DNA from: a virus
IMG/VR virus record: IMGVR_UViG_3300025133_000060
Location: 17,531-81,530 of that record
Direction: 5' to 3' (one strand)
DNA length: 64,000 nucleotides
The notes beneath the pieces were generated by a model that ran no database searches, was not told the DNA's origin, and saw only the letters and a list, made by a program, of their open reading frames with translations. Positions 21,961-54,499 of this stretch are shown here, one piece after another. Every line of letters starts with the position of its first letter. Position 1 is the stretch's first letter. Made by a program: the position numbers and the translations under genes.

Positions 21961-22266
21961 GAAAAAAGACTTCAACCCCCGAAGGAGTATGAAGCGAGTC
22001 GAGATTTAAGGCAGAACAAAACCTTTGGACAGTTTAACCCCCACTCCGGTTCTCGCTCACAAGCGGTGATTTGCTTAGAACTCTGACAGGCCTTCTTGGG
22101 GGAATACGCCGCATTCACGCCTTGATATTTCAACCACCGATATTCCGGTGGCTCTTGGTATTTCAACCCGCAAGGCGATACTCTGTTTGGCGCATCCATG
22201 AATCCTCTCGACTCAATGCCCCCATTCAAAGAAGAGGGGCGGCTTCGGTGGGGGTGTTCTCCCACA
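21961..22266 (-). ncRNA. Candidate structured ncRNA A (about 300 nt)
   Basis: Own promoter at 22289-22316; nested helices GAGUCGAGA/UCUCGACUC, GGAUGCGCC/GGCGUAUUC, CGCCUUG/CAAGGCG, CCACCGG/UCGGUGG, CCCCCA/UGGGGG; UUCG hairpin then U6. Confidence 0.65.
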
Positions 22267-22316
22267 AACCTATCGAGTCAGCATCGACTATATGAACTCT
22301 TCGGAATATCAATGGT

Positions 22317-24128
22317 TTATTGAGATATTCCAAGCGTGAACTTCAATGTCGACATCAAGTCTTGGCCTTGCCGACCCACCGTCAATGTCATTGTCGAACC
22401 TGATGGACTCATGCCCCATGCGATGTTGAATATCCTATGGCGACCAGATAGACTCGCCTCGTTCGATGCGAACTCCATCACATCTCCGACTCTCAAATCG
22501 AATCGCTCTGGAATGCCGTTGACCACCCACTTGGTTCGTTGAAGTCCTTGAGTATTCAAGAAGTATTCGCCAACCAATTTTGCTTGAACTTCATCGGTGA
22601 TTGAATCATCCTCAATTCTCTTCTCCACAGGAATGGATGGGTATCGAGTGGAATCGGTTGCTGGAACTGACACATTTATGTCCAGTTCAGGATTCGACAC
22701 TATCGCAACATTGAATCCTGTGATTTCACCGGATTCTCTCTCAATTCCTGTTGGATAGAAGTCTTGTGGCAACGCACTTCTCGGCATTCGACCGGCGATG
22801 AATGGTTGGACTGTTGCATCATCGACTTCACGCAATTTGCGAAAATTGATGTAGCCATCCGCCGAGCAATATATCTGGTTCAAGGCGGGAGTGCTATTGA
22901 TGATATTCAATATCGTTTGGATTGCCGACAGGCGAGTCTGACCAACGAAGTTCATTCCGGCTGGGAGAACGACATGGGATTGATTTGCCATGCGACCAAC
23001 AGGCGGAGCATAAGTGGAGTTCGCCACAATGTCTTTGATAACGGTTGCCGCATCGGTTTGAAAATATGTCATTGACCCCTTGACCACTTCGAGATTCAAA
23101 TAGCCGAGCGCACACAAACACTTGAATGAAATGTCGCTCGATGATTCGTGAACTTCTGATACAAATCCGGTGAACACAAGTGGTGGACTCGCCCATGTTC
23201 TCGGACTCGCATACACTTGAACTGTATCGCCTCGCTTAATCCAGCCAGTTCTTCTGCCAGATGGATTATTGAGTTCGATATTGACTTCGGTGGGGCCATT
23301 GAAGTTCTGTGTGAGATTCACAGAAGTGATTCCATGCAAATCATTGAGTCCGTTGATAACAACAGTCGGGGATTGTGGTGTTGCTTCATCTCGTGCGAGG
23401 GGTCCATAGAGATTCCTGAACAACACTCTCCGTGAGCGAGCGAAGAATATCTTGTGCGCCCAGCCGTTTCTAAGCCCCCCTAAGCGCATCCTTTTGGGTC
23501 GGTTAGTCCATTGTAGTCCTTCGGGATTCCAACCGCCGTCAGAGAAGCCCAATCGCCCCAAATTGAATACTGGTTGAGGGAGAATGGCGGTGGGATATGC
23601 ACCTTCGGTGGGGCCGGTTGTCATGGAGAATCCACCACGAGGACCCCCGCCTCTTCTGGTGATTATGTCTTGTTGGTCGGGGAATCCTGTTGAACCTTGA
23701 TAATTGTAGCCGAATCCGAGCGCACCCGTTTTGACATCGCCATGCAATTGAGGGTCAAACGGTCTTGGTGTGGTCAGGCTTGTGTAGCCCAGCGTGGTGT
23801 TCCTATCTCGCAACCAAACGCCACTCAAGTCAGATGGGAATGGAATCATATCCAAACCCCAATCCACCGGATAATGTGCCGGTCGATACATGAGTTCCTT
23901 TTCACTATGACTTGCATCGAGTTCGACTCCTGTGCCTTCGCTCATAGATTCGTGGGAATGTTCCAACCAGATTCGTGAAGCCCAACGAGCGATGGCGGTG
24001 CGAGGTCGGCGAGGGTCTTGACCCATCCGTTCGATTTCATCCAACAAGCCCTTCGGCGGAGTGATGATTAGTTCATCATCGCCAGACCTGACCAAGCGGT
24101 GGAATCGCTCGATACTGTCTTTGTCCAT
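22317..24128 (-). CDS. Tail tip/baseplate hub-like protein
   Basis: IKRGDTVQVY..VFTGFVSEV..CALGYL and LRVGDVM..HRIFNIAW..MTLTVG patterns typical of hub proteins; tail module. Confidence 0.65.
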   Translation of the reverse strand: MDKDSIERFHRLVRSGDDELIITPPKGLLDEIERMGQDPRRPRTAIARWASRIWLEHSHESMSEGTGVELDASHSEKELMYRPAHYPVDWGLDMIPFPSDLSGVWLRDRNTTLGYTSLTTPRPFDPQLHGDVKTGALGFGYNYQGSTGFPDQQDIITRRGGGPRGGFSMTTGPTEGAYPTAILPQPVFNLGRLGFSDGGWNPEGLQWTNRPKRMRLGGLRNGWAHKIFFARSRRVLFRNLYGPLARDEATPQSPTVVINGLNDLHGITSVNLTQNFNGPTEVNIELNNPSGRRTGWIKRGDTVQVYASPRTWASPPLVFTGFVSEVHESSSDISFKCLCALGYLNLEVVKGSMTYFQTDAATVIKDIVANSTYAPPVGRMANQSHVVLPAGMNFVGQTRLSAIQTILNIINSTPALNQIYCSADGYINFRKLREVDDATVQPFIAGRMPRSALPQDFYPTGIERESGEITGFNVAIVSNPELDINVSVPATDSTRYPSIPVEKRIEDDSITDEVQAKLVGEYFLNTQGLQRTKWVVNGIPERFDLRVGDVMEFASNEASLSGRHRIFNIAWGMSPSGSTMTLTVGRQGQDLMSTLKFTLGISQ

Positions 24129-24147
24129 ACACTATCGTGCGCCCTTG

Positions 24148-24160
24148 CGGGTTATCACGG
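24148..24160 (-). promoter_or_regulatory. Representative late-class promoter CCGTGATAA(A/C)CC / TTAACCC
   Basis: Copies at 24151, 39834, 48538, 56127, 37643; TTAA variants before portal, protease, HNH and giant tail gene. Confidence 0.7.
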
Positions 24161-24164
24161 TTGT

Positions 24165-24437
24165 TCAAAAGTTCGTTTTGATGTAGCAAGATGCGAGATG
24201 GTCAATGAATCCGTGAATTGCTTCGGGGTTATGCCATTCGATTTCACGAATGGTGTGGCGAATCTGCGCCTGTTCTGGGTATGATGCGACTTCAATAACC
24301 ATGCGGATAACTTCATCAGAGTCGATGTAGTGGCACATCGACTGGTCATCAATGTATTGGATGGTTCGATTTGGCAGGTTGCGCTCTGCGAAGTATGTGG
24401 TCAAGTATTTCTGAACGAGAGTTTCTTGGGTCGCCAT
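24165..24437 (-). CDS. Hypothetical protein (90 aa), self-promoted cassette within tail genes
   Basis: ATG 22 nt after TTCATATA with upstream ATTGAGA/ATTGTGATT boxes. Confidence 0.7.
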   Translation of the reverse strand: MATQETLVQKYLTTYFAERNLPNRTIQYIDDQSMCHYIDSDEVIRMVIEVASYPEQAQIRHTIREIEWHNPEAIHGFIDHLASCYIKTNF

Positions 24438-24576
24438 GTTAAAGACGAGGGGTTTCGCCTATATGAACCCTTTGGTTCTCTCAATGTTTGAGAATCACAA
24501 TTGAATAGTTCTCGATTATTCATAGTTCATAAAGGGTCGAGCAAACCATTGTGATTGATAAGTATCGAAGCGAATA

Positions 24577-27500
24577 TCAAACGCCAAGACCCGCCTCTCG
24601 AACCAGATTGATTGTGTATGGAGTTTCACCATGTCGACCACCTTCTCGATTGTAGTCGAACGATGTGATTCGACCCACGAATGTTTTGCCTGTCGGTGTT
24701 CCTACATAATTGACGGATTCCCACATGAACTCCACGAGCGAACCACTCATCAGCAATTCTTCAACGAACTCAATATCGGCATTGGCGGTTTCAGTCAGGA
24801 ATGAACCGGAGAGAGCGAACTCATCATGTCTTTGACCCATATCCGTCAGTTCTGGATAGACGGCATCGAGAACAGGAGTTTGCGACCATTCTGCGCTTCG
24901 GTTGCGTTGGAATCCCTTTGGCATGATATTGAAAACGAGAGGAACCACGAGCGTTGCTGGCAGAACCTTGATAATCGCCGTTGCGGTTTGTGAGGATGCA
25001 CTATCATTGTCGACAACGACCAATGTGGCTTGGTATTCACCAGCCGCCGCATAGGTGTGTTGGGCGGTTCCAGATGCGTTGGTTGTTGACCCCGACCCAT
25101 CTCCGTATGTGAATGTGTATGAAGAGAGGCTCGCACCCGCATTGATGTCGAATGAATCTGTTCCATCGAGAGTGATGGGTTGCCCTGCTCTGATGAGAGA
25201 TGGAACGGCTCGGAGAACTGCGACTGGTGCGGAGTTCACCACGACAACACTCATGGTCGCCGCATCCGATTCATTCCCCGCATCGTCTTTGGAATACACT
25301 TTCGCATCATAAGTTCCGGCGATGAGATATGAGTGTGCCGTATCATAAGTATTGGTTTGAAGCGTCTGGTCGGTGAATGGCAACCAATCGGTGATGACTC
25401 CATCTCCAAAGTCGAACTTGACTTGTGTGATGATTCGGTCGATGTCAGTCGTGATTCCAGTTCCCCTGAATGACACAATATGACCGACCTTTGTGTCAAT
25501 GGGGGGAGTGATGTCGCCATTGAAGGTGTTGCCTATGCAAGCAATACTGGCGGTTGGTTTGATGTCATACTCAAGCGACCACGAACGAATGATTGGGGTT
25601 GTTGACCAATCCACAGGTTGAAGCGTTGCCATCGAACTTGTTGGAACATAGAATAAGAATCGAATCACGAATCCATTGGTTGTTGCATCGGTTGGGAGAG
25701 TGGTCAAATCAATCGAGCCGAATCCGCCGATGACATTCAAATCCAGAGCATCAAAGTTCTCGTATGGAGTTCCACCTTCGCCTTGACGAAGAACCGTCAA
25801 ATCGGTTGCGATATTGTCATTGACCGGACAGATTGACACCTTGACATTCATGCCCTTTGACACATTGATGTTGTCGACTTCGACACTCAAGCCTGTGTAT
25901 TTGCCAACACCCGCAATTTGTTGCTTGCGAGAGTCCACAGGGAATGGAATCATAGCATCGGATGGAATGTGCCGGATGGTGATTTCATCCATCTGGAACG
26001 CCGCATTCGTTTTGTTGTATGTTGGGTTCGCCATCCACATATCGTTGCCGACTCCATCGTGAAGTGGACTTGCATTTGATTTCAATCCTTGACCACAAGA
26101 CTTCTGAAACAACAATGAGAATCCCCACACAGGGTCGTTGGAGTTCAGGTCTTTGCCCTTGCTCGCACCATCTATGCTCATTGTCATGCCTTCTTCATCG
26201 AATGTCGCTCGCATGGTGTGATAACCTTCGGTCATTGTGAATGGTGTGCCGGTTCCAATGTAGTTCCCCATAGTTCCCCAGCCCACATTATTTCCTCCCA
26301 TAGCGGCATACGGCCACGAGTTCTCCAATGCGACATCAACCCAATCACCGCCCAACGATACATCGGCTTGGTTGTAATTGAACGCTGGCGGTTCACCCCA
26401 CATGGCCGACCCACCCCAGACAAATATCTGGGAATTGTGCGAAGCCAATTTGGTTTGTGATTCGTTTTGAATGTTCATGCTTTTCCAGCCCAAGTCTGTC
26501 GCCGAGCCTTCTCCTGTTCCCCAAGACACTTCGTCATTCAAGCCTTCGATGAGTCCGATTCGAGTGAATCCTTGTGTCCAAGTCAACATCGAACCGTGAT
26601 TGTTGTGAGCATGACGACCGAACTGGATATTATTCACGCCAGTATCGAAGTCGATAATAGTCAACAAATCCTTCTGAACTGGCCACCACGCTTTTATCTG
26701 CAAATCCAACCAGATTGGAGAACACCCGACTTCGGTGAGTCCAGTATTTGTTGTCTCCATTCCGTATGTTCGGTCTCCAACAACGGTTGGGTTGGGTTCG
26801 AGTAATGTCCATGATGTTTGCCCGAATGACCCATAACCACCCTTCGTGGCGACTCGCTCGTGGACTGGCCAGATTCGATTGCGACCATACGGCCACTTCT
26901 CGACACCCGTTCCGGCTGGACAATAATCCCATGCGTGATAGCCGGTTGCTTGGTCATAGAATGAAGTGAATAGAATTGTCATTCCCTTGCTAAACCATCC
27001 TGCGGATTGGGAATTGTATGAGAACTTACTCGCATTCTTCGACAGCACATTCGCAGGGTCGGTTTGACTCATTTCATAGACGGCGTTGTGGCCAACCGAG
27101 AAGTTCGACCATCCCATATCCGCCACCAATTCCATTCCAGAACTCGAAAGACGGTCAACATTTGTGATGCTGAAATACTGACCAGCATGGCCGAATGAGT
27201 TTGGTGCGTTGCACCGTAGCATTCCACCACCATGCCCACCGGCTATCGGGTTCGATATGAACACATCTTGAGTGGGTGATTGGAGAGATATTCCAGCAGG
27301 GGTATTCGCATAATCCCCAAACCATCCACCCATGTCGTTTGACCATAATGCGAGAGGGTCGAGTGTCAATCTGGTCGGGCTGGTGAAATTATGGCCACCG
27401 TATGCAGGAACATTTTGACCACCAATGTATGCGCCACCAATGAATCCGACACCCATTTCAGCATCATAAATGGGGCCTTGTGTGGTGAATATGTTGTATT

Positions 27501-32100: not shown

Positions 32101-32291
32101 CGTCTCCTATTCTGCTTCGCTCTCTTCGCATACTTCTCTTCTCGCTTCTTGTGTTCAACGAAAGCATTCGCCAAGAACGCAGTATCACGAGGGTCCATCT
32201 CACGCCAGTCTTGTGGAGTGAGTGAAAAGTCTTTCAGTAAATGAAAATAGAATTGACCCTCATGGGTCTCGGAGAACCTTACGATTCCCCC
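32097..32291 (-). CDS. Tail assembly chaperone C-terminal extension (predicted -1 frameshift product)
   Basis: -1 frame IVRFSETHEGQFYFHLLKDFSLTPQDWREMDPRD...; GGGGGAA at 32285-32291 just before TAC stop. Confidence 0.65.
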   Translation of the reverse strand, partial: GGIVRFSETHEGQFYFHLLKDFSLTPQDWREMDPRDTAFLANAFVEHKKREEKYAKRAKQNRRR

Positions 32292-32644: not shown

Positions 32645-32657
32645 TTCTAATCACCCC

Positions 32658-35431: not shown

Positions 35432-35436
35432 TTCAA

Positions 35437-35629: not shown

Positions 35630-36775
35630 TCAAACCTTGCGAGCAAAGGTCGGTCGCAAGACTCTCACTTCTCGTGCGTCTAAGACCCCTTGAAAGGTGT
35701 TCGTGCCGATAGTGGGGTTCGACTCCATGTTCGGTTCTGCAAGCGTTCCAGATGCCGTCAATTGAGGTGTTTGGAGAGGATAGTCCACCGCACCAACAAT
35801 ACTGCTGGAATCGGTCTTGACTCCCCATCCAGTATAGGGATAGGGCAATAACGCCGGAGAAGCCGCCTCAAGGCTCACTCCCGACCCAAGTGCGGTTAAA
35901 CCCCCAACGGTGTCTCCACGACCCCACAGATAGGCCAGTTCGGACAATCTGGTGTATGTGTTGCTTATACTGGCGGGTCTTGACGCAGAGTTCAGGATGG
36001 GGCAGGTTGACAAATTGCCAGACCATTCGAGAGTGGCATCCGTGAATGCTGGCATATTGCCGGATGATTTGGCCGGAGCGAGGAACTTTTGTGTTCCTGT
36101 GTCTGTTCCATCCCAATAAGCGGTTGTAGCGGCTCTCGCTGGATTGATGGGCGCAACAACATTTTGCGACATCGAGAATGCCGCACCGTTGTTGTATATG
36201 GTGGCCGCTTCGGGTGCTGTGGGCATCCAAGTATTGGCGACCCAAATGTCGCTCATCAATCCCTCAAAGAAGTCGCCATCACATTCCCCCAATCGCCATT
36301 CGGTGATGGTCGACAAATCTGGAGCAGAACTCACTTGATAAGTCCAAACGACACCGTTGACCCAGATGTCGAAGTATTGGTCATATTGCGACCACATGAT
36401 ATGATTCCATGTGTTCGGGGTTATCGTTTGGCCGGAGTAGCCAGTCGATGTGCCATGTTGAACGAAGATTTGATTTGTTCCTGATTTGATTTTCAATCCG
36501 ATTGCGTTGTTTGTTCCATCGAAGAATGACATCAATCCATCTGTGGTGTTGACTGTTGGTTTGAACCATCCACCGATGGTGAACTTGTAGCCTGTCGGTG
36601 TCAATGGGAATGTGGATGGGTTGACGGCCACCGCCAGTTTGTAATAATCCGAGCCTGTGATTGCTTTTGTTTTCCATTCTAACGCCGCCGGATTGAACCA
36701 CGACCGAACCTGTTGCTCCCAATCTGGTGCGGTTCTCGAAAACCGAGTCAAAGCGGATGCGCCTGAAATGCTCAT
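35630..36775 (-). CDS. LamG/concanavalin A-like domain virion protein
   Basis: FTIGGWFK..NTWNHIM..IWVNG..FFEGLMSDIWV..IYNNG. Confidence 0.8.
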   Translation of the reverse strand: MSISGASALTRFSRTAPDWEQQVRSWFNPAALEWKTKAITGSDYYKLAVAVNPSTFPLTPTGYKFTIGGWFKPTVNTTDGLMSFFDGTNNAIGLKIKSGTNQIFVQHGTSTGYSGQTITPNTWNHIMWSQYDQYFDIWVNGVVWTYQVSSAPDLSTITEWRLGECDGDFFEGLMSDIWVANTWMPTAPEAATIYNNGAAFSMSQNVVAPINPARAATTAYWDGTDTGTQKFLAPAKSSGNMPAFTDATLEWSGNLSTCPILNSASRPASISNTYTRLSELAYLWGRGDTVGGLTALGSGVSLEAASPALLPYPYTGWGVKTDSSSIVGAVDYPLQTPQLTASGTLAEPNMESNPTIGTNTFQGVLDAREVRVLRPTFARKV

Positions 36776-37506
36776 GATTCACCCTTGCCGTTCCGGTTTA
36801 ACTTTGTATCGAACTCAATATCCGCATCATGGATTTCACCCTCCATCTGCAAATGGTCAGTTCTCGCTCGCTTCAACAATCTCCGCAATCTCGCCGCCTC
36901 CGCCGCATCCAATGTTCCACCGTTCTCCACTTTGTATAGCAAGGAGTCGATGTCATTATCCATCTGTCGAGGTGGACCCGAACGCTTTGAAGTGTCGCCT
37001 TCGAGTTCTTTTTTCGCCGCCCGTTGTCGTTGTTTTCGCCTTTTTCGTCTGCGCTTCTTTTGTCGGGTCAAGGAGTCGTTGCCAAAAGTCGAACTCGCCG
37101 CACCAGCCTCACCAGCCTCAATCCAGATGGACTTCTCACCAGATTCAACGGCTCTGCGATGGTCGGTGTAATGGTCTCGCCGGTGGCAATTGGAACAAAT
37201 GACATCACACTTCTCAATCTCGGTGAGTATTCGCTTCTTGGCTAATCCAGCGGCGACCATTCCAGAGATGAGGTAATCCTTCTCTTCTGGGTTGCGATGA
37301 TGGAACTCCAACGCCCATGCGTTATCCTCTCCAGATAGCCCACACACCGCACAAGAGAGAGTCTCTTTGAGTTTTCGCATCCACTCTCGGATTCCCCTCT
37401 TTCGACTCCGAACCTGCTCAATTCGAGAGCCACGATTTTGTTGATACCATTTGCGATGATACTCCCGTTGATACGCCGCCCGTTTCTCTCGGTCTTTGTG
37501 TGGCAT
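36772..37506 (-). CDS. HNH endonuclease with basic C-terminal extension
   Basis: CAVCG..LEFHH..EIEKCDVICSNCHRRDH. Confidence 0.85.
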   Translation of the reverse strand: MPHKDREKRAAYQREYHRKWYQQNRGSRIEQVRSRKRGIREWMRKLKETLSCAVCGLSGEDNAWALEFHHRNPEEKDYLISGMVAAGLAKKRILTEIEKCDVICSNCHRRDHYTDHRRAVESGEKSIWIEAGEAGAASSTFGNDSLTRQKKRRRKRRKQRQRAAKKELEGDTSKRSGPPRQMDNDIDSLLYKVENGGTLDAAEAARLRRLLKRARTDHLQMEGEIHDADIEFDTKLNRNGKGES

Positions 37507-37565
37507 GAATCGCCATCATACTGTGAGGGTTAAGAAAGAATGGGTGGTGGGAGAATGACGGATTA

Positions 37566-37625
37566 TGGAATGCGGCGACTGGCCGTCATCCCCCCGATGT
37601 TCGGTGGAGGCTCCAGCCGCATCTC
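37566..37625 (-). ncRNA. Candidate small hairpin RNA E
   Basis: Late-type promoter GTGATAAA at 37643-37650 followed by AUGCGGC-UGG..CCG-AACAU-CGG..CCA-GUC-GCCGCAU long hairpin. Confidence 0.35.
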
Positions 37626-37699
37626 AATGTCAGTCTTTGGGGTTTATCACTATTTCACACACCGATACGCCTTTTAACCCCAAAGGAGTCAGCACAACC

Positions 37700-44641: not shown

Positions 44642-47067
44642 CAGTTTCCACCTTCACGCTCTGGGAGAGTTTCTATCGCCGGAACCAACACATCTTCGGG
44701 TGGAACAATCTGGTCGGGGTCGGGAGTGTCCTCAACGGCCACAAATGTGCATCGACAATTTGGATGCGCTGGAACAACCGACTTCGATTCTTCGATTTTG
44801 TATTTGGCTCCTTCATACGGAGCGCACAATGCTCTGTCGGTTTGGGTGTCGACAACGACCAATCTCTCCACATATTGGAATCCTGCTCGCCGCATTCCAG
44901 AGATGTGTGAGTTCTCAACCACTCGGCGAGTCTCGGTTCGTGCTATGCGTGAGTAGTAGTATGATGGATATTTTGCACCGTTGGGGTCAATCAACGAACG
45001 CATCTCGGCTGAAGCCCATTTCCATGATTCTCCACCAGACACCATTCGCTCAAAGACACCGATGACATTCTTGCGATGTGAGCCGAGTGTGTTGCGGAGA
45101 GCAGGGAGAACCCATCGCCTTCGCCAGAATGCAATCGCCGCAATATCATCGGCCATCAACGCCGAAGCCATTCCGGTTGGTGCAAGTGTGAGAGCGAGTG
45201 AATCCGCATAAGCCGAAGTGAGCATGACTTCTGCTTCGACAATTTGCTTTTCGAGTGTTGCGGCGATATTGGTGTCAATACGGCCAATGGCGACCTCGAT
45301 GTCGTTGAGCGATATTGTGTCTTTTCGTCTGAACATTTTGATGGGAATGTCAAGGTCGACATTTGGAATCTCAACCGCTTCATCGCCACCGGCGAACATC
45401 TGGTTCAATTCTCTCATCACATCGGATGCGAATTGTTCTTGTTGGTCGGCAAACATTTGTTCCATCAGGATTGTATTCTGCCCGATGAGATTGTCATATT
45501 CGTCAGCAGATTTGATTCTCCTGTTCTGTATATCGAGCCGAATATCGGCGGATAATCCAGCCGGTTCGAGTTCATCATTCCAATCTGGAGCCGAACCTGC
45601 TCCATCGCCTTCATCAAGTGGCCGACTTTTTTCAGGGAATAAATCGTTGAGAGATGGGGGAGTCGCTGGATTCTCACCTTCACCGCCGAGCGCATCCGCA
45701 CCAGCATTGATGGATAACTTCGGAGAGAGATAGAATGGGTCGTCTGCTTCGGGTTCGCTCAATCGCTCAAGACCAAGCATCTGGCGAGCCTCGTTGATAC
45801 TGACCACACCTTCTTGGCGCAGATTGCTGATTGCATTCGACTCGGCCTTGCGAGTCTCGGCCAGTTCTTTTTCACGGCTCGGTCGGATGGTCGTGAAATT
45901 GAATATCCATTCGTCAATCCCAAGCAACGGCAACAGGCGATTGTTGATGACGGCTTCGATTCGGCGATGGAATGATTCAATCACATCATACCACGCATCC
46001 AATTGTTGTTCTGGATTTGACATTTTGCCTGTTTGGACCCAACCCAATTTCATTGGTGGGATTCCGAACACAGCGCAAATCTCTTCACGATAGTAATAGA
46101 GCAAATCCAATTGCGCCCCTTCACGAGTCGAATCGAGAACCCTGTGCATATTGAATCCTGTTCCACCATTGACGGCGACCAACCCGAACGGTGATTTACC
46201 ACCAGTCAATTGTTGCTCAAGTAGTGAGAGCATCGCCTTCATCTCGGCGTTGCTGATGTCGCCGACATTGAGGATGGTCTTGGGGAGAGTTCCGGTATAG
46301 AGTTCGTTCAGATAATTCGACAGGTTCAGGTGTCCGGCGATGACATTCAACAAGGCGATGAGTGGTGAAGTTCCATACGCTCGGCCATGCTTGAACTTTG
46401 AAATGTGAATCACTTTGTCGGCGGAGAATTGTCGAGTCTCGCCATTGACCTTCTGCGTATAGGCCATTTTAGGTGGGGCGGGTCTGCGATTCCCTGCGGT
46501 CAATTTCATTTGCTCGGCAGGGATAGGCCACACACTCACGAGTTCGCCACCGAATGTCCACTTCACACCCTTTGAGTCCAGAGATTTATCCGCACTCCCA
46601 TCGAGTTCGAGATAGGCATCTCCAAATAACGCAAGGTCATAGATTAGAGTCTCCAACCACTCGTTGCCGTTGTCATCGGGATTCGGATTCTTGAACCAGT
46701 CTCGTGCCTTCGCCAATTGTGTTGAATCTCCAGATTCCGCACCTTCGGGCAGGATGAATGTGTAGCCATTCCCAAGACAGTCATCAACAGTTCTGCGAAG
46801 GATTGCATTGACCACTTCGGATTTGAGGCTGATGTCTCTCAACAATTGATAGGACACTTTCGTTTCAGTTCCAGAGCCGGATTTGCCTCGACCTTTTTGG
46901 GTTGCTTGGCCAATTTTCGACATGGATGCGAGTGCTTTGCCATCCCAATCGAGTTCCGGTTTGTGTGCTTCATTCACCATCTGGGTGAACTTGGCGACAT
47001 CTGCCGAATCAACAGGTCGATTGCGACCCAGAAGTCGGTCGGTGATGCTACGCTTGCGTTCCGCCAT
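44641..47067 (-). CDS. Portal protein fused to MuF/SPP1 gp7-like head morphogenesis domain
   Basis: PNPDD..DLALFGDAY..YGTSPL..ICAVFGIPP..SINEAR (portal); RIARTET..HPNCRC (MuF). Confidence 0.9.
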   Translation of the reverse strand: MAERKRSITDRLLGRNRPVDSADVAKFTQMVNEAHKPELDWDGKALASMSKIGQATQKGRGKSGSGTETKVSYQLLRDISLKSEVVNAILRRTVDDCLGNGYTFILPEGAESGDSTQLAKARDWFKNPNPDDNGNEWLETLIYDLALFGDAYLELDGSADKSLDSKGVKWTFGGELVSVWPIPAEQMKLTAGNRRPAPPKMAYTQKVNGETRQFSADKVIHISKFKHGRAYGTSPLIALLNVIAGHLNLSNYLNELYTGTLPKTILNVGDISNAEMKAMLSLLEQQLTGGKSPFGLVAVNGGTGFNMHRVLDSTREGAQLDLLYYYREEICAVFGIPPMKLGWVQTGKMSNPEQQLDAWYDVIESFHRRIEAVINNRLLPLLGIDEWIFNFTTIRPSREKELAETRKAESNAISNLRQEGVVSINEARQMLGLERLSEPEADDPFYLSPKLSINAGADALGGEGENPATPPSLNDLFPEKSRPLDEGDGAGSAPDWNDELEPAGLSADIRLDIQNRRIKSADEYDNLIGQNTILMEQMFADQQEQFASDVMRELNQMFAGGDEAVEIPNVDLDIPIKMFRRKDTISLNDIEVAIGRIDTNIAATLEKQIVEAEVMLTSAYADSLALTLAPTGMASALMADDIAAIAFWRRRWVLPALRNTLGSHRKNVIGVFERMVSGGESWKWASAEMRSLIDPNGAKYPSYYYSRIARTETRRVVENSHISGMRRAGFQYVERLVVVDTQTDRALCAPYEGAKYKIEESKSVVPAHPNCRCTFVAVEDTPDPDQIVPPEDVLVPAIETLPEREGGN

Positions 47068-47108
47068 AGATAGCGGGTTGTGTCATGGGGTTTAATTGCA
47101 TTTGTGAT

Positions 47109-47293
47109 AAGAATGAAGAAGAGAGCCACTCCACACCAATCCCTGTGTTCAGCAGGTCTTGTTCCACCGTGTCAATATGTGGAGGCTCGCCCCCGAAGGG
47201 GTTGGCGGGGTTGAACAATCCTGTCCAATCCACGAGTCGCTTCATAGGGGGGAACGCCCCCAACACGCTCGCTTTTTGTCCAAGTCGGCTCAT
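47109..47293 (-). ncRNA. Candidate structured ncRNA B (about 180 nt)
   Basis: TATA-like TTCTTATG about 20 nt upstream; terminal helix GAGCC(G)AC/GUGGCUC; CCCC-UUCG-GGGG, GGGG-CGUU-CCCC, GUUCA/UGAAC, CCAC/GUGG; pyrimidine tail. Confidence 0.5.
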
Positions 47294-47407
47294 GTTGACG
47301 GAGAGGACACTCACATAAGAACCTTTCCATTGTGATTCCACACCATTGTGATGCCGAACTCTTTATAGGGGGGAACTGCCACGACAGGGTATAGGAGACC
47401 GGATAAC

Positions 47408-47836
47408 ATGGGCGATGACAATGTTGGAATGACCACGACTTGGGCTCGCAACGACAAAGGCGATTTCCAAGACGCATACAGGGCTCGTGCTTCTCAAGTC
47501 AGAACCACAGACGCTCGTTCAATCACCGCCGCTTCACAAGTCATGTATGACTGTGTTATGGCCAACGGATGGGCTGACCACATGGGTGATGTTCACCCTA
47601 TGAACTTCAAACAAATGTGGATGAGCGATGTCATGAACTCAATCAACAAAGCCGACTTTGAGAAGAGACGCTTTGCTGGGAACTCCGGCTATTGCAGATT
47701 CATGAGACCATACATGGATGCTCACGATACCGCTTTCATCGCTGGTGCAGATTATGTTGATTCGGCAATCGCTGGATTCAAAGGCATGATGGACTTCTAT
47801 GGTGTTGATGCACCGTTCTGGGCTTGGTGGGTTTGA
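47408..47836 (+). CDS. Hypothetical protein (142 aa), inverted self-promoted cassette
   Basis: Promoter ATTGTGATGCCGAACTCTTTATAGG at about 47345-47369; GGAGA SD. Confidence 0.7.
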   Translation: MGDDNVGMTTTWARNDKGDFQDAYRARASQVRTTDARSITAASQVMYDCVMANGWADHMGDVHPMNFKQMWMSDVMNSINKADFEKRRFAGNSGYCRFMRPYMDAHDTAFIAGADYVDSAIAGFKGMMDFYGVDAPFWAWWV

Positions 47837-47885
47837 GTCGACTTCAGCGAACGGCTCTGGAATCGTGAGCCGACACCGTTGAAGG

Positions 47886-48032
47886 TCATGACCAATCTGG
47901 CTTGTCGTTGGTTTCGATGATACGCATATTCCCGTAGCGTCTGGGGCAATTCACGGCGTTGCACTTGGGTCTTGATGAGCGAGTCCATTTGGTGCGCCCA
48001 CAAGCATCGCATTTGGCGCACCGGAGAGGCAT
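47886..48032 (-). CDS. Small Cys-rich protein (48 aa)
   Basis: Manual translation MPLRCAKCDACGRTKWTRSSRPKCNAVNCPRRYGNMRIIETNDKPDWS; TAATG coupling. Confidence 0.55.
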   Translation of the reverse strand: MPLRCAKCDACGRTKWTRSSRPKCNAVNCPRRYGNMRIIETNDKPDWS

Positions 48033-48325
48033 TAAATCATCCCATCAACGGCCATTGGCGCACCAGTAGCCGCACCGATTCCGATGAGGATTCCAAGCAC
48101 GATGCGACCTGAATAGCGGCGGAGAATCGACAATGCTTCGTTCTTAATCTCCTTGAGTTCCGCCACTTCTCCTTCGATGGTTTTGACATCGTGCTTCAAT
48201 TCGGCGATGTCTGCGCTCATGTGCGCCAGATGATTATCTCGAAGATTAGCCAAATCTCGATGAATGGCTTGGGTCCATTGAAAGTGAACCGCATCACGGT
48301 CGGTGTCATTCGGCATTAGATTCAC
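48032..48325 (-). CDS. Coiled-coil protein with C-terminal TM helix (possible lysis function)
   Basis: LRDNHLAHM..coiled coil..IVLGILIGIGAA. Confidence 0.65.
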   Translation of the reverse strand: MNLMPNDTDRDAVHFQWTQAIHRDLANLRDNHLAHMSADIAELKHDVKTIEGEVAELKEIKNEALSILRRYSGRIVLGILIGIGAATGAPMAVDGMI

Positions 48326-48515
48326 TCTCGGTGATTATCTCGTCAACCACTTCTTTGACTTCTTCGGCTTTCTTTGAAATTGCTTGCGCTTCTTCAATAA
48401 CTTCATCAATCGTTATCGTGCCATCGGCCATGACTCGTTTGTATCGTTCACGAAGCCAAAGGGCTGTGGGGATTGCGGCAACGCCGATAAGCGTGAGGAT
48501 GGTCTCGATGTCCAT
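48306..48515 (-). CDS. Small N-terminal TM protein (holin-like candidate)
   Basis: MDIETILTLIGVAAIPTALWL..ADGTITIDEVIE; late-type promoter 22 nt upstream. Confidence 0.6.
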   Translation of the reverse strand: MDIETILTLIGVAAIPTALWLRERYKRVMADGTITIDEVIEEAQAISKKAEEVKEVVDEIITESESNAE

Positions 48516-48585
48516 ACCGGCTGGTGGGCGGTTGGGGTTTATCACGGATTCGATTCATTCATTCAAAGGTTGACCACATGGTTTT

Positions 48586-49464
48586 ATGATGTTGGGGTTT
48601 GTCGGGATTGTTATGGGAGTGAAAGCATGGCCAATAGGAGACGACATTCCGATTCCAAGTTCGGATGATTTCACATTTGTTGTCATGTGGTCAGGTGGGT
48701 TGTCATCCTATGAAGCGGCAAGGCGTTGTGTTGACCAGTTCGGCAAAGAGCGAGTGGTGTTGTGGTTCGCCGATACTAAGACAGAAGATGCCGACCTGTA
48801 TCGGTTCAACGATGAAGCATCCAAATCACTTGGTTTGCCGATTCGCTCATTTGTTATAATTGGAAAAAGCGGGGAACCGCTGGACTTGTGGTCAATGGCG
48901 AGGGAGCGAAAGTTCATCCCAAATAGTCGTGCTGATATGTGTTCACGAGTGTTCAAACGAGAACCGTTGAGAGCCGCCATGAAAGATGAGTTCACACCGG
49001 ATAATGCAATAGTCGTTATGGGGTTCGATAACATCGAGGATTGCGGTCGCATCGAACGAGGTCGAGCCTCGCAAGCACCATTCCCTGTCTATTTTCCATT
49101 GTTAGAAGGTGCGACCCCATTCAAACGCAAATTGATGCGTGAAGTGAAAGCGTCTGGTATTGACCCACCCCGATTGTATGAATTGGGATTTACACACAAT
49201 AACTGTGGTGGGTTCTGCGTCAAGGCGGGGTTGGGTCAATTTGCTCACTTGCTCAAGACTCTCCCAGATGTGTATGCTCATCACGAAGAACAAGAGCGCA
49301 TCACCAAAGAATTGTTGAAGTCGCCACACACAGCATTGAGTCGAGGTGGCAACCCATTGTCATTGACGGATTTGAGAGAGATGATTGAGGCTGGAAAGAA
49401 GTTCTCATACAAAGAACTCAACACCGATATGTCATGCGATTGCTTCTCGGCTTGGTTCGATTAG
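48586..49464 (+). CDS. PAPS-reductase-family (PP-loop) protein 2
   Basis: WSGGLSS, FADTKTED, CSRVFK, HNNCGGFCVKAG; exact start uncertain. Confidence 0.8.
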   Translation: MMLGFVGIVMGVKAWPIGDDIPIPSSDDFTFVVMWSGGLSSYEAARRCVDQFGKERVVLWFADTKTEDADLYRFNDEASKSLGLPIRSFVIIGKSGEPLDLWSMARERKFIPNSRADMCSRVFKREPLRAAMKDEFTPDNAIVVMGFDNIEDCGRIERGRASQAPFPVYFPLLEGATPFKRKLMREVKASGIDPPRLYELGFTHNNCGGFCVKAGLGQFAHLLKTLPDVYAHHEEQERITKELLKSPHTALSRGGNPLSLTDLREMIEAGKKFSYKELNTDMSCDCFSAWFD

Positions 49465-49467
49465 TGA

Positions 49468-49667
49468 ATAAGAAGGCGCAGGTGCAATCTCTCACCATGA
49501 CGGCAGAACCGACCAAGCGAGGCTTTGGGAATCGGCGGCGAACCCCCGACCCGATTTGATGGTTGGGGAGCGACCCCGCATCCAATACACCATAGAACTC
49601 TCCCCGCCCTCATGCCGCCGAAGCGAGCGTCAGGGGCCACACTCCGCTAAGAGTGGGGTTCTCTGCT
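49468..49667 (-). ncRNA. Candidate structured ncRNA C (about 200 nt)
   Basis: Cassette-type promoter at 49690-49713 with no start codon at +23; helices AGAAC/GUUCU, CACUC/GAGUG, CGC-UUCG-GCG, AUGGU/ACCAU, GGGG/CCCC, AAUCGG/CCGAUU, GGUG/CACC. Confidence 0.65.
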
Positions 49668-49715
49668 AATCAAGACGAGGGGTGTTCAGTATATCAATGT
49701 TTTGATTCTCAATTC

Positions 49716-51251
49716 TCACGCACCAAAGGTTCTCATGGTCGGCAACCCACCACCTTCGTCAAGCATATCGAGCGCAATAGTCGCATACAGCAGAGCGTGA
49801 AAAGCGTGGTCATCTCCATCTCGACCATACTTCGTCAGGGTTTGCGACCGGCGTTTTCGACTCGTTTTCATATCATCCTCAACAGATGAATTGATGGCAC
49901 ACCATTCGTGGAGAACCCATTCCAGTTCCCTGTCCTTGAACGGCAAAGAGATTTCCTGTTTTTTGATTTTCTCCAAAGTGCGTTCGATGTATGTGGTTCT
50001 GTCGACAATGGCCATGTTGATGATATTGCGGTTGTTATCTCGCTTCTTGAACTCATATGGAGTCATAGGCCGAGATGAGTAATAGCACGAGCAGACTCGC
50101 TCGCCGAACTCCTTCTGGAGTTCCTTGACTTGTCGTGCGCCGTAGCCAATATCACAAACGACCTTTCGAGAATTGTATCGGAGAATGAGTTCCTTGACTC
50201 GTGCGACTTCATCTAAGTCTCCATCGCCACGAGCCTCGACTTGAAGTGCGTTCAATATCCGTTTGCCATCTGCGCTCATGATGACAATTGTCGTTGTCAA
50301 TCCCCAATCAATTCCCATCACCGATTCTTCTGGGATTTTCACGCTCTCGGTCGGAAACATATCGGAGTCGATAACTCCCAAAGCCACATCGAATGTGAGG
50401 GGTTTTGCCGAACCAGCAAAGAACTCACCGAGAACTTCATTTTGAAATCGGCGAGGTGTGTATGTTCCACGCTTCTGTTCAATGTCATCATCGCTCACAT
50501 CGGGGTGCATTGGTTGAGTGATGTGATAGCCAATGATGTGGTCAACCTGTGTGTCGTGGCCATGCTGATGCACCCATTGTTCACCATCCCACTCGCCCTT
50601 CGTGCTGGTCTCCCAGAGCCGCCAGAACTCCGAGCCTTGCTCACGAGCCGTTCCACTCACGAGAACAATTTTGAAGTTCGATTGAGTCAGCATCTCGATT
50701 AGCATTGGGAGAACATCTGGGTCGGAATCCTGATATTCATCTATGCAACACATATCGGCGGCGATACCGAGCAAACCGTGAGCATCGCCCCAGTTCGAGT
50801 AGGCATAGAAGTGGTTCAACGACTTTGCACCGACATCGAATGTCTGGTGGCTCACGGATGCTTTGATGCGTTGCTTGAGAAGGCATCCACCGTTGATGCT
50901 TGACATCATAGCCCCATTGAACCGTTCTTCAACGAATCTGGACACCTGTGGTTGTCTTGGTGCGGTATAGACGGCATTGAAGTATGGAATGTTCAATAAC
51001 CCATACAAGAGCAGGTTGCAGATGGTCTCGGTCTTTTCGACCTTGCGTGAACATTTGAGAACAATCACCTTCGTGATGTCATTCCGTTCAGTCGCACCGA
51101 AGTGCCGATAGATGTCGATGAGATATGGTCGTTCGTGAAGCATGAAGGGCTTGCCTTCGATGGTTCTGAAGTATTGCGCCCAACGGTCAGGATAAAGGGC
51201 TATTTCACGAGCCTGTTGACTCGTGAGGGTCAATCCACCACCCTCGCTCAT
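49716..51251 (-). CDS. terL: Terminase large subunit
   Basis: KCSRKVEKTE variant Walker A, CIDEYQD Walker B, SGTA, MGIDWG, VCDIG, DDHAFHA nuclease motifs. Confidence 0.9.
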   Translation of the reverse strand: MSEGGGLTLTSQQAREIALYPDRWAQYFRTIEGKPFMLHERPYLIDIYRHFGATERNDITKVIVLKCSRKVEKTETICNLLLYGLLNIPYFNAVYTAPRQPQVSRFVEERFNGAMMSSINGGCLLKQRIKASVSHQTFDVGAKSLNHFYAYSNWGDAHGLLGIAADMCCIDEYQDSDPDVLPMLIEMLTQSNFKIVLVSGTAREQGSEFWRLWETSTKGEWDGEQWVHQHGHDTQVDHIIGYHITQPMHPDVSDDDIEQKRGTYTPRRFQNEVLGEFFAGSAKPLTFDVALGVIDSDMFPTESVKIPEESVMGIDWGLTTTIVIMSADGKRILNALQVEARGDGDLDEVARVKELILRYNSRKVVCDIGYGARQVKELQKEFGERVCSCYYSSRPMTPYEFKKRDNNRNIINMAIVDRTTYIERTLEKIKKQEISLPFKDRELEWVLHEWCAINSSVEDDMKTSRKRRSQTLTKYGRDGDDHAFHALLYATIALDMLDEGGGLPTMRTFGA

Positions 51252-51290
51252 AGAGCAAGGGAGTGAACCCCTATTCGTCAACCTATCGGT

Positions 51291-52412
51291 TCAAACCTTC
51301 TCAACGATTGAGAATTGGTCTGCGTATTCGTTTGCCGCTTGGCGACTGGTGAATGTGCAGATGGTCTCTCCGGTCTTGTGGTCTTTCACGGCGAAGTTCC
51401 CCTCATCATCACGCATGATAATGACTTCAAGAACCTTTGATTCAATCTCGCCTTCGATGACCATAGCGGTGGCCTTTGAGTATGGCAAGCGGTAATGCTT
51501 TGCACAGATGGGTCCGTAGCCATGTGCGGTTGAACGATAGTCAGTCAATGGCAAGGAGCAGAAGCAACATCGGCCAGATTTGCGACCCATGTCCATCACA
51601 GTTCCAAGTGGGTCATCACGAAGTAGTGTCATAACCCTGTGAACTTCGGCGTTGGTTGCTGGAGTGAAGTTCCATCCTGCGGTTGCTTTGTTGATGTGTC
51701 CATATTGAGCATCACGGTCGTTGTAATCAGCACCGTGATTGTGAACATAGAGAACCTCGTTGGTCTCTTTGTGTCGGCGGTTGGAACGAACAACGACTTC
51801 ACGGCCATCGTCAGTTATCAAGTGGATTTTAGTGCGAGTCAATGTTGCACCGGCGGCATCGAATAGTTCCAGAACTGCCTCAAATCCATCCATAGCATCG
51901 GAGTCGCTCACAGGTGTGGTTGCGATGCGATGTGCTTCACGAGCCGCCGCACGAGCCGCACGAGCCGCATCCCTGCTTGCTTTATCGGCGATTCCCTTTG
52001 CCTGTGCATCTGTTCCCTCGTCAATCATTTTGTGAACATACGGCAATTGCTTGGCGGATAGATAACCCTTGTTGCGACCTTGACGAATCAAGGATTGAGC
52101 GAAGGTCTGACTTCGGTGTGAAAGGTATGGTCTGACTTCATCGAGTTTGTCGCATAGTTCCGAGAGGTTCTCGGTTGCCGGTGGAGTCGATACTGGTGCG
52201 CCGCCGGACACAGGTGTTGCCGGTGGAGTCGAGGATGGTGTTGCCTCTGCGGTGATTCGCTTCACCCAATACATTTGCTTCTCACTTAGCGAATACTTCT
52301 GACCCTTATTCACGAGGTCGCTTGCGAAGGATTTGCTTCGGTCTATTACATCGTCAAGCACACTTTCAAGTGCGCTGACGGCTTCAATTTGCTCTGGACT
52401 AATGGTTGCCAT
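51291..52412 (-). CDS. Hypothetical protein with two LSxKQ helical repeats and C-terminal DUF6011-like Zn finger
   Basis: SFASDL..LSEKQ and TFAQSL..LSAKQ; GRCCFCSLPLTDYRSTAHGYGPICAKH; cassette promoter at 52435-52460. Confidence 0.75.
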   Translation of the reverse strand: MATISPEQIEAVSALESVLDDVIDRSKSFASDLVNKGQKYSLSEKQMYWVKRITAEATPSSTPPATPVSGGAPVSTPPATENLSELCDKLDEVRPYLSHRSQTFAQSLIRQGRNKGYLSAKQLPYVHKMIDEGTDAQAKGIADKASRDAARAARAAAREAHRIATTPVSDSDAMDGFEAVLELFDAAGATLTRTKIHLITDDGREVVVRSNRRHKETNEVLYVHNHGADYNDRDAQYGHINKATAGWNFTPATNAEVHRVMTLLRDDPLGTVMDMGRKSGRCCFCSLPLTDYRSTAHGYGPICAKHYRLPYSKATAMVIEGEIESKVLEVIIMRDDEGNFAVKDHKTGETICTFTSRQAANEYADQFSIVEKV

Positions 52413-52434
52413 GTTTATACCGAACAGGTTGCCA

Positions 52435-52460
52435 CTTATCAATGCTTCGGAATATCAATA
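52435..52460 (-). promoter_or_regulatory. Representative cassette (early-type) promoter: ATTG(A/T)(T/G)AT box, CCGAAG, TATA
   Basis: ATTGATATTCCGAAGCATTGATAAG + 22 nt + ATG; related copies near 2344, 8965, 11355, 14322, 14847, 22289, 24460, 35032(+), 38617, 43825(+), 47345(+), 49690, 54522, 57983. Confidence 0.8.
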
Positions 52461-52466
52461 GTCAAT

Positions 52467-52961
52467 TCAAACACTTGAATCGTCTTTCCAATCACGCTTG
52501 CGTTCGGCCATCTTGGCCTGACGGACTTCTCTCTCGGCGGCTCGGCGGTCATCATCCGCCCTGCGCTTGAGAGTCTTGTTGAGTCGGTTGGTTCCAGCAG
52601 ATACGGTTGCGCTCACACACACAGGAATCAATTCTGATGTCGGTGCATCAAAGTGAACCGCCCATTGGAATCCTCTGCGGAACATAGCAACATCTTCGAC
52701 AACGGTGTCTGATGGGAGATTCGGCTTTGCCTCTTGGAATGCGGCTTCTTTCATCCATAGAGATGCACAACCCTTGATTGAGCCATAGATAGCGGCGACA
52801 ATCTGGTTCGGTTCATGTGGGAATCTGGCGACCGTATAGGTGATTGAACCTGCTTGCATATCCTCACATTCAAGTCCATGTTCCAGTAGTTTCGCTTTCA
52901 GATTCTCTCTTGTCATACGCTTCAATTCTCTCTTGCCAATGGCAGGTCGCTTTCTGGGCAT
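52467..52961 (-). CDS. Hypothetical protein (164 aa)
   Basis: ORF with TTGATATAGGTGGG promoter. Confidence 0.65.
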   Translation of the reverse strand: MPRKRPAIGKRELKRMTRENLKAKLLEHGLECEDMQAGSITYTVARFPHEPNQIVAAIYGSIKGCASLWMKEAAFQEAKPNLPSDTVVEDVAMFRRGFQWAVHFDAPTSELIPVCVSATVSAGTNRLNKTLKRRADDDRRAAEREVRQAKMAERKRDWKDDSSV

Positions 52962-52988
52962 ATTACCACCGAGCCAGCCCCACCTATA

Positions 52989-53570
52989 TCAATCGTTCCG
53001 TTCTATCAACACAAAAGATTCACACCAGACTCCACCGTTATTCGCTTTGCAGCAATCCCGACAAGCCGATTCGGGAGCCATCCGGCGAGTTCTGAACAGA
53101 ACTTTGTGGCATTTTGGACATTCATACTTGAACAGTCGACCCTTATCTCGCTCGATACGCTCGATTGCTCGAACGAACTTCGCTCGTTGATAGCGATATT
53201 CGTCAAATTGTTCCCAGCCTGATTCCAATTTGGTGAACATCTGGCCATGTCCTGCTTCGCTCCCACATACAATGTGAAGCAGTTCGTGATGAATCAATCC
53301 TTTGAGCAGGAGTGGCTCCATCAAGTGATACTTGTCGAATGAATAGCGATTGAGAGAGATGGTGAAATCATCATCCTTGAATCTGACCTGCGCCAGTAGG
53401 CGGATTGTTCCCTCACGGAGATACCGCCAGCGCAACCACGATGTTCCGCTTGGCAACCCACCGAGAACATCTGGTCGGTCGGCTCGCAATTCTCGATAGA
53501 GATTCCGAACCAACAGGAGATGCTCAACAGATAGTGGGTTGGTCAATCTGGATTTCCGACTCGTTCCCAT
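52989..53570 (-). CDS. SprT-like zinc metalloprotease with Zn ribbon
   Basis: HHELLH..GHGQMF; YECPKC..CRDC. Confidence 0.8.
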   Translation of the reverse strand: MGTSRKSRLTNPLSVEHLLLVRNLYRELRADRPDVLGGLPSGTSWLRWRYLREGTIRLLAQVRFKDDDFTISLNRYSFDKYHLMEPLLLKGLIHHELLHIVCGSEAGHGQMFTKLESGWEQFDEYRYQRAKFVRAIERIERDKGRLFKYECPKCHKVLFRTRRMAPESACRDCCKANNGGVWCESFVLIERND

Positions 53571-53803
53571 TGTTCACCCTCAACGGCGGTGATGAAAATA
53601 ATATCGTCTGCTCGGAACAAGCGGAATACTTGTTGGGGATTTGTCAATGTCAACATGAGAACCTTCTCGCCAATCGCCGTTGGCGATGTGTTGGCGTTTA
53701 TCTCCCATGAGTGAGTCTTGAGTCCGTTGACTTCGATTTCATCGTGCTCCATTTCATCGTTCACTTCTTCGACCACTTCTCGTATGTCATCCTCAAGACT
53801 CAT
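53543..53803 (-). CDS. Hypothetical protein (86 aa)
   Basis: Coupled ORF. Confidence 0.55.
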   Translation of the reverse strand: MSLEDDIREVVEEVNDEMEHDEIEVNGLKTHSWEINANTSPTAIGEKVLMLTLTNPQQVFRLFRADDIIFITAVEGEQWERVGNPD

Positions 53804-54318
53804 TGAGAATCACTCTCCTGCCCCAAGAATAGATTGACGACACCATTCTCGACCTTCACCAAGAATTGTCGACCATCACGAGTCCATGACACTTCGCCAT
53901 TCGAACGGTCTCCGATAATTGCGTGGATGAACTGGTTGATGTCGGTGAGATTCAATCGAATCATATCGACAGTCGGTTGATGAGGATTGGTGATACACTT
54001 CTTTGAACTGGCATCTGGATTGACTCTGGAATGCCTCATGGCATCTCCATCATACGCTTCTCGAACTTTGTCTTGAGTTATCGACTTGACAACCCACGAG
54101 ATTCCCTCGCCGGTCGCCAACCATCGGCGACTGTTCTTCGGATGCTTCTGGATGAAGCCCGACACCTTCAACGAATGAATGGTATGATTGTATGACTTCG
54201 CTTGTAGCGGTGCATCGTTGATTATTCCAGTTTTGTTTGTTGGTTCGTTTGAGTTCGTGATGAACATTTTGAGAACACTCATCATTCTCACTCTGGTCTT
54301 GTCGCCGATTCCGGTCAT
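53800..54318 (-). CDS. Winged-helix DNA-binding protein candidate
   Basis: TIHSLKVSGFIQK..WLATGEG. Confidence 0.55.
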   Translation of the reverse strand: MTGIGDKTRVRMMSVLKMFITNSNEPTNKTGIINDAPLQAKSYNHTIHSLKVSGFIQKHPKNSRRWLATGEGISWVVKSITQDKVREAYDGDAMRHSRVNPDASSKKCITNPHQPTVDMIRLNLTDINQFIHAIIGDRSNGEVSWTRDGRQFLVKVENGVVNLFLGQESDSQ

Positions 54319-54374
54319 AATTCATTCATGGATTGCACACCATTATGAACTCGCCGGTATTGATATAGTGGGGT

Positions 54375-54499
54375 AAAGGAAAAGGATTGGTGGGGGATGC
54401 CACTTCGACTATACATTTGTTGGCCGACCACTCGTTGTGGCCGTTTAAGGGATTACTCTCCCACTTGCGGTCTCGTTCCGCATCCCAAGTCGCTTGGGT
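54375..54499 (-). ncRNA. Candidate multi-hairpin small RNA D (about 125 nt)
   Basis: Promoter at 54522-54545 with no start codon at +23; consecutive hairpins CCCAAG-CGA-CUUGGG, UGCGG-AACGAGA-CCGCA, GGGA-GAGUAA-UCCC, GGCCAC-AACGA-GUGGUC; CCUUUUCCUUU tail. Confidence 0.65.

Follow-up and report, generated by a model that had tools for sequence, protein, structure and literature searches.

Candidate modules of a mosaic structured RNA family in the genome of a predicted marine archaeal virus

Among large structured RNAs described to date, GOLLD (RF01998) and ROOL (RF03087) offer close parallels to the elements considered here: both are GC-rich, multi-helix RNAs of several hundred nucleotides (nt), often virus-encoded, which form independent transcription units, vary by inserted modules and have no assigned function. 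The prohead RNA of phi29 (pRNA, RF00044) is likewise a virus-encoded structured RNA with its own promoter, and the manA motif (RF01745), another structured RNA of marine viral sequence, is an orphan. We analyzed a 64,000-nt stretch (hereafter the window) corresponding to bases 17531-81530 of an 81.5-kb IMG/VR viral contig (IMGVR_UViG_3300025133_000060), for which a preliminary description had proposed a suite of unrelated viral RNA genes at five intergenic loci, near 22.0, 37.6, 47.2, 49.6 and 54.4 kb (loci A to E). Promoter-driven structured RNA genes do appear to exist in this virus, but not as five unrelated RNAs: sequence comparisons point to at least one folded-RNA gene in the window (A), probably two (A and D), with B, C and E unproven. 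The overall explanation we favor, and consider fairly probable, is that these loci are not equivalent, and that A and D represent modules of one mosaic viral RNA family.

The clearest case is locus A, which lies between the genes for a 603-amino-acid (aa) protein and a 2318-aa giant tail protein, and which is very probably a gene for a structured non-coding RNA of ~305 nt because it has homologues, covarying helices and no coding signal. Promoters of this virus follow a simple rule, in which more than 20 long open reading frames (ORFs) have their ATG 29-31 nt downstream of the first base of a TATA-like 8-mer (TTGATAAG, TTCATAAG, TTCATATA, TTTATAGG or TTGATATA), without a Shine-Dalgarno sequence and often with a second CATTGATAT element and a CCGAAGC spacer upstream. 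This places the ATG ~22 nt past the 8-mer, in line with the ~23 nt first reported, and such TATA-to-ATG spacing is the geometry of archaeal leaderless mRNAs. Intergenic exceptions to this rule are found at 22296(-) in locus A, where only a GTG frame follows, and at 49697(-) in D and 54529(-) in E, where, as previously noted, the same promoter is followed by no start codon at the set distance; a fourth lies outside the proposed loci at 56340(-), where an ATG is followed by five codons. Both the D and the E promoter are paralogous to one at 24.4 kb, which belongs to a real 90-aa gene.

The site of A is hypervariable among relatives of this virus, and its counterparts in two of them (G001 and G002) are frame-free stretches of 760-880 nt, both led by this same promoter. 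Profile searches with nhmmer connected the RNAs of G001, L223, G003 and the L275 group at E-values of 1e-15 to 1e-47, and positions 22205-22318(-) of the window joined this family at E 0.004-0.007. A covariance model built from eight members (R1) similarly identified window positions 22215-22273(-) as the best non-training match, and third best overall, in 470 kb (17.5 bits, E 0.005-0.02), while further recovering L306, L277, L279 and, weakly, L003. Together, nhmmer and R1 place a family RNA at A's site in L223 and the L277 lineage, whereas nhmmer locates it ahead of the G003 portal gene (E 1e-15), and in the same slot on the opposite strand in the L275, L244, L250 and L247 lineage. This occurrence at varied sites and on either strand marks the RNA as a self-contained unit. 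The RNA of G001 and that of the closest relative, L223, consist of blocks of ~95% identity between unalignable stretches and indels, a pattern which fits an RNA and not a protein.

In all of these members, a 5′ domain composed of AUAGAUUGUU, hairpin 1, an invariant CCGAAG and hairpin 2 is set at a constant distance from the TATA-like 8-mer. The 8-mer lies ~23 nt upstream of AUAG(A/G)UU in A and all members compared, which puts the predicted start at the foot of hairpin 1, and promoters of relatives have the same architecture and the same distance to this domain as in A. A covariation check for A revealed that 98.8% of cells were paired across a 12-member alignment, and that seven of the 15 pairs were compensatory, a level reached by none of 500 shuffles; sliding the partners by 1-3 columns lowered the paired fraction to 44-69%. 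Ten of 11 divergent members also folded into both hairpins when considered alone, with at least six different hairpin-2 stems. Downstream, A and G001 share short colinear motifs (GGCGUGAA, GUUAAACYG and a hairpin with a UUGUUC loop), and in A, G003, G001 and L223 the letters just past hairpin 2 can pair with a stretch beyond the UUGUUC-loop hairpin. Read together, these pairings look like a covarying closing helix, while an automatic search for such a helix over 1-kb windows was not significant. The RNAs of the family run up to U-rich tracts, past which lies the promoter of the next gene, and the terminator-like ends previously described were also observed here, as a hairpin and U6 tract for A and pyrimidine tracts for D and E.

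We also scanned cellular genomes for the 5′-domain pattern, which retrieved no host RNA resembling it, but one related viral contig binned with Legionellales and two hits in unrelated bacterial genomes that we presume to be due to chance, since about four were expected. Separately, the family member of G003 includes 2.3 tandem copies of a 22-nt unit (L015 5439-5490), each forming a small hairpin with a CAACG loop.

To evaluate coding potential, we used a codon log-odds score trained on 31 long genes of the virus, which ranged from 0.09 to 0.23 per codon for real small genes, and averaged -0.07 +/- 0.07 for 222 spurious frames (95th percentile 0.046). The 97-codon frame in A, which starts at the GTG, scored 0.004, near the spurious frames and consistent with its initial dismissal as an unconvincing ORF, while frames in D scored -0.13 and -0.06. 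Scores were borderline for the 81-codon frame in C starting at ATG 47293 (0.096) and for a 72-codon frame across E (0.079), the latter starting upstream of the E promoter. No PHROG family was matched by any small frame of the loci, and tblastx comparison to relatives provided no match backing any of them, with the lone weak match, from C, found on the opposite strand. Overall, A and D lack the start spacing, codon usage and conserved frame of a small protein, whereas C has an ATG 28 nt after the TATA and a borderline score, for a frame that is not conserved in relatives.

The expectation that the loci would fold better than dinucleotide shuffles was not clearly borne out, with z-scores of -2.52 for A, -1.73 for C, -1.61 for E, -0.84 for B and +0.75 for D; folding energy alone backs only A, and weakly. 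The suggested preference for the minus strand holds for A, with a minimum free energy of -111.8 kcal/mol compared to -95.7 kcal/mol for the plus strand (16 kcal/mol less stable, z -1.26), and family members tend to beat shuffles (z of -3.3 for G003 and -1.7 for L277). Searches of Rfam 15 with the window and eight related loci gave no hit that reached a gathering threshold, and relaxing the cutoff to E 10 added only noise, the families considered including tRNA, RNase P, signal recognition particle, C/D box, hammerhead, twister, manA, GOLLD, ROOL, HEARO and pRNA. The sole Rfam match on a family RNA was P11 on L244 (26 bits, for a gathering threshold of 70), none overlapped loci A-E, and ARAGORN found no tRNA. 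The lack of a match to tRNA, RNase P, signal recognition particle, C/D-box or hammerhead consensus, originally judged by eye, is thus corroborated by these tools.

For locus D, the balance of evidence tips slightly towards a second module of the same family, which would have moved beside the terminase gene and come under a promoter of its own. D is predicted to start at 49668, two to three bases ahead of GCAGAGAACC, and GAGAGUUCUAUGGU is found 53 nt past that motif. The same two motifs recur in the same order in G001 (71410 and 71497), 74 nt apart and directly past the close of an A-type module, and 19 nt around the second motif are common to D and G005 (74278), inside an 800-nt frame-free region. 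Among the few sequences available, the corresponding pattern, in which GCAGAGAACC close to the 5′ end and GAGAGUUCUAUGG a further 50-80 nt on would close a multi-helix junction, is complete only in D and the G001 lineage, and a scan of viral and metagenome collections returned the G001 lineage only. Exact scans gave mostly chance hits for the 14-mer GAGAGTTCTATGGT and one chance hit for the D/E promoter. Local alignment of D to the 3′ part of the G001 RNA scored 32, compared to 20.5 +/- 2.9 for shuffles (none of 300 as high), and the GGUUCGCCG motif of D resembles a family loop motif. A and D would thus be modules of one family with common motifs, and the initial claim that the RNAs do not resemble each other is wrong for this pair. 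In the L275 lineage, an internal TATA-like box lies behind the A-type module and precedes another frame-free unit with a similar start, and nhmmer indicates that modules are distributed mosaically between lineages. D points at the 3′ end of a plus-strand gene convergent with it, and so does not lead into any gene.

Several observations weigh against these assignments. For A, the R1 score is marginal when taken alone, and the covariation alignment was fitted to the model and includes many close relatives. For D, the proposed homology is based on a 10-mer, a 14-mer and a weak local alignment, whose score is reached by six of 300 shuffles when the whole G001 RNA is considered, and its fold is no better than shuffles. 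A GAGAAC/GUUCU pair is common to A and D, yet has 44 instances in the genome, and was rejected as a family signature because of this frequency. Finally, the frames of E and C score borderline for coding. Contigs from four sequencing runs represent an identical strain across D and E, hence provide no variation with which to evaluate pairing.

Table 1 Coordinates of the candidate RNA genes and associated elements in the window.
Feature	Position	Strand	Description
Promoter of RNA A	22289..22314	-	CATTGATAT element 22314-22306; TATA-like 8-mer TTCATATA 22296-22289
RNA A (family module 1, very probable)	21962..22267	-	~305 nt
RNA A 5′ domain	22273-22215	-	Hairpin 1, CCGAAG, hairpin 2
RNA A putative closing helix	22214-22206 and 22004-21996		GAGUCGAGA pairs with UCUCGACUC
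RNA A predicted terminator hairpin	21994-21970		
RNA A U6 tract	21967-21962		
Promoter of D	49690..49710	-	TATA-like 8-mer TTGATATA 49697-49690; paralogue of 24.4-kb and 54.5-kb promoters (repeat family D12)
RNA D (probable module 2)	49466..49668	-	~200 nt
D motifs		-	GCAGAGAACC 49666-49657; GAGAGUUCUAUGGU 49602-49589; GGUUCGCCG; pyrimidine tract 49476-49466
Locus C	47100..47321	-	Promoter TTCTTATG 47321-47314, then RNA or 81-codon leaderless frame from ATG 47293
Locus E	54371..54531	-	Promoter TTGATATA 54529-54522, ~130 nt of short hairpins, CCUUUUCCUUU tract at end
Locus B	37515..37650	-	Weak promoter, 19-codon frame, 13-bp hairpin with two G-U pairs

The three other loci are each of a different nature. 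Locus C occupies the slot of a family RNA in relatives: its promoter (GTTCTTAT) and the portal promoter are both found in L003 and L005, where the 200-280 nt between them are frame-free and, in L003, open with a family-like 5′ domain, while G003 carries a full family RNA (5356-5845) at C's site, upstream of the portal gene. Because the window version has diverged and includes the leaderless 81-codon frame, an RNA and a small protein are here about equally credible, each falling somewhat short of an even chance, and the ORF at 47.2 kb, which begins at the predicted start site, is less unconvincing than first described, given its borderline coding score. Locus E is an insertion of ~150 nt compared to all relatives, the closest of which have gaps of only 65-110 nt, and may be either a strain-specific small RNA or an emptied cassette. 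Locus B immediately precedes an HNH endonuclease gene (36772-37506), and a leader or divergent promoter region is its most likely identity. The gap syntenic to B in G001 holds protein cassettes, and the inclusion of 37.6 kb among the loci with only an unconvincing ORF was not confirmed, as a genuine SAP/DUF4214 gene occupies the plus strand opposite the antisense 117-codon frame at B. The R1 5′ domain had no match at B, C, D or E, with D and E sharing the promoter only. When loci B-E were compared to ~140 related loci and five whole relatives with blastn, tblastx and nhmmer, B, D and E yielded promoter matches only, C gave weak, non-significant colinear matches, and no homologues of B and E were found. 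The proposal of RNA genes is thus upheld by comparative evidence for A, more weakly for D, and lacks comparative support for B and E.

Other features were observed around these loci. A well-formed promoter, TTGATATAG, is located inside E at 54353-54367(+) and faces the minus-strand promoter at 54529, so that ~110 nt would be transcribed from both strands. A sixth gene-less promoter, TTGATATG at 56340 (region 56122-56347, minus strand), has an ATG at the canonical distance, followed by ~170 frame-free nt before the next gene, which include a GAGAAC/GUUCUU hairpin. Locus D abuts a strain-specific insertion between portal and terminase (47408-49464, plus strand), which encodes a 142-aa protein and a second PAPS-reductase-like protein, and is absent at this place from ~60 relatives.

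Some or all of the loci could alternatively be accessory-gene cassettes which either lost their frame or encode very small proteins, with incidental hairpins; candidate frames would be the 81-codon frame in C, a 72- or 34-codon frame in E and the 19-codon frame in B. We consider this unlikely as a general explanation, even if it would account for the weak fold z-scores, for the paralogy of the D and E promoters to that of the real 90-aa gene, from which they differ by a mutated start-codon position, for the E insertion missing in relatives, and for the ATG of C and its score above the 95th percentile of spurious frames. It is at odds with the covarying helices and frame-free homologues of A, with A and D frames scoring like spurious ones, with the failure of small frames to find a PHROG match or a supporting tblastx match, and with the RNAs in the C slot of relatives, which have no ATG at the start site. 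Improbable too is an interpretation of the structured stretches as cis-acting mRNA parts, such as processing sites, long leaders, or hairpins that serve as terminators or insulators between cassettes. All loci are intergenic and on the same strand as at least one neighbor, and B and C precede the HNH and portal genes, respectively, as such elements would. Yet A ends in a terminator of its own, beyond which the giant gene has a separate promoter, D has a convergent plus-strand neighbor, and family members are found opposite to the strand of their neighbors in the L275 group and elsewhere in the genome in G003.

Two further scenarios are very unlikely. Conservation could act on DNA, through promoter arrays, binding sites or recombination hot spots for cassette exchange, with hairpins as by-products; consistent with this, the invariant CCGAAG(C) doubles as the spacer that immediately precedes the proximal TATA in many promoters of the virus, and the loci occupy hypervariable slots. 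Such a scenario does not predict the compensatory changes that preserve helix pairing, the G-U pairs in helices, which are valid on the transcribed strand only, or the quite different stem sequences at the same position across lineages. A morphogenesis factor similar to phi29 prohead RNA, which would act with the portal or terminase, is less likely still. While copies adjoin the terminase (D) or the portal (G003, L003 and locus C), A and most members are located among tail genes, no Rfam prohead-RNA match was detected, and loop-loop complementarity was inconsistent when inspected by eye in four members. A complementarity between hairpin 1 and the GUUCGCC loop was likewise discarded as inconsistent across members, and a kink-turn reading of the GAGAA/GUUCU internal loop was rejected by eye. 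Modules of one mosaic RNA family at A and D remain our preferred explanation, and of the five loci proposed, no more than one or two are truly supported.

The genome carrying these loci is best read as that of a marine, magrovirus-like archaeal virus, with a host that is predicted, not proven. This reading is based on the promoter grammar, on marine metagenomes, which hold dozens of ~80-kb relatives, and on a related terminase (n=1) in a metagenome-assembled genome (MAG) labelled Euryarchaeota archaeon. A minus-strand tailed-virus module includes a large terminase, a portal fused to a Mu-F-like domain, a prohead protease/major capsid protein and a tape measure, and the remaining genome encodes a family-B DNA polymerase, an RFC-like clamp loader, CobT/MoxR-like ATPases, a helicase and a C5 methylase. 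With regard to host assignment, the contig PBLX01000067.1 (L315; 55.5 kb), which includes the family 5′-domain pattern, was deposited inside a Legionellales MAG, a placement that is probably a binning error. The hosts of magroviruses are uncultured archaea that rank among the most abundant in the surface ocean, and a term search of two magrovirus papers returned no mention of promoters, non-coding RNA or structured RNA genes.

Additional sequence elements were identified outside of the proposed loci. An AT-rich stretch at 56750-57000, flanked by GT/CA-rich inverted repeats (GGGACACACAC ... GUGUGUGUC, then AAGAGGGGGTCTC), looks like a replication origin or genome end, and a similar element is present in G005 (73800-74000), past the 800-nt frame-free region. 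Two 45-nt inverted repeats (13251-13295 and 56737-56781), 84% complementary and with the palindrome TATCCCCCCTATGGGGGGATA at their center, are located 43 kb apart. At the end of the window, nine-base periodic repeats of the GCNCCNGTN type (63715-64000, minus strand) could encode a collagen-like Gly-X-Y segment.

Based on these comparisons, RNA A would be made from a standard archaeal-type promoter, starting ~30 nt after the first base of the TATA and stopping at the hairpin and U6 tract; we infer these start and stop points, as well as the closing helix. The family plan includes the conserved 5′ domain and a hairpin with a (U)GUUCGCC loop, together with a putative long-range helix closing around variable inserted hairpins. 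Module 2 appears fused behind an A-type module in G001, and a similar-looking tandem unit with an internal TATA is present in another lineage. The product could speculatively be a stable, separately transcribed RNA acting in trans, in which single-stranded invariant motifs (CCGAAG, GUUCGCC and AGUUCUAUGG) displayed on a helical scaffold would bind a viral or host protein. A scaffold or decoy is accordingly a possible, if tentative, role for this putative RNA. That modules 1 (A) and 2 (D) form a single bipartite or multi-module particle, encoded fused, in tandem or apart, seems a long shot; in this virus, A and D would then come together in trans, either directly or on a protein.

These RNAs can be set against known systems on several counts. 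Solitary CRISPR-repeat RNAs and viral mini-arrays (RNA anti-CRISPRs) also consist of a promoter-driven hairpin, followed in some family members by AUUGAAAG-like letters that recall the archaeal CRISPR RNA (crRNA) handle. The window has an unrelated sequence at this position, which is still able to pair, and no repeat-spacer organization or such direct repeats were detected in the loci. The handle reading was rejected because these letters appear to be the 5′ strand of the long-range helix. For manA, no match was obtained in the window or eight related loci, including at lax thresholds. Compared to phi29 pRNA, with which the family shares the location of some copies beside packaging genes, size and architecture differ and most members are found among tail genes. 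The likeness to GOLLD and ROOL does not extend to sequence or structure (no cmscan match at E up to 5-10), nor are the window RNAs beside tRNA genes. Instead, this RNA family is new to Rfam, conserved, promoter-driven, modular and shifting between genomic slots, and provides RNA biology with a covariance model and sequence set to extend, and virology with a candidate host-takeover or assembly factor to seek in metatranscriptomes. While GOLLD and ROOL are RNAs of bacteria and their phages, the window RNAs apparently have an archaeal host and a leaderless-type promoter, and should the bipartite reading be true, in which A and D would resemble a split ribozyme or a two-piece transfer-messenger RNA, they would be the first case of a large functional RNA system to be reported from archaeal viruses.

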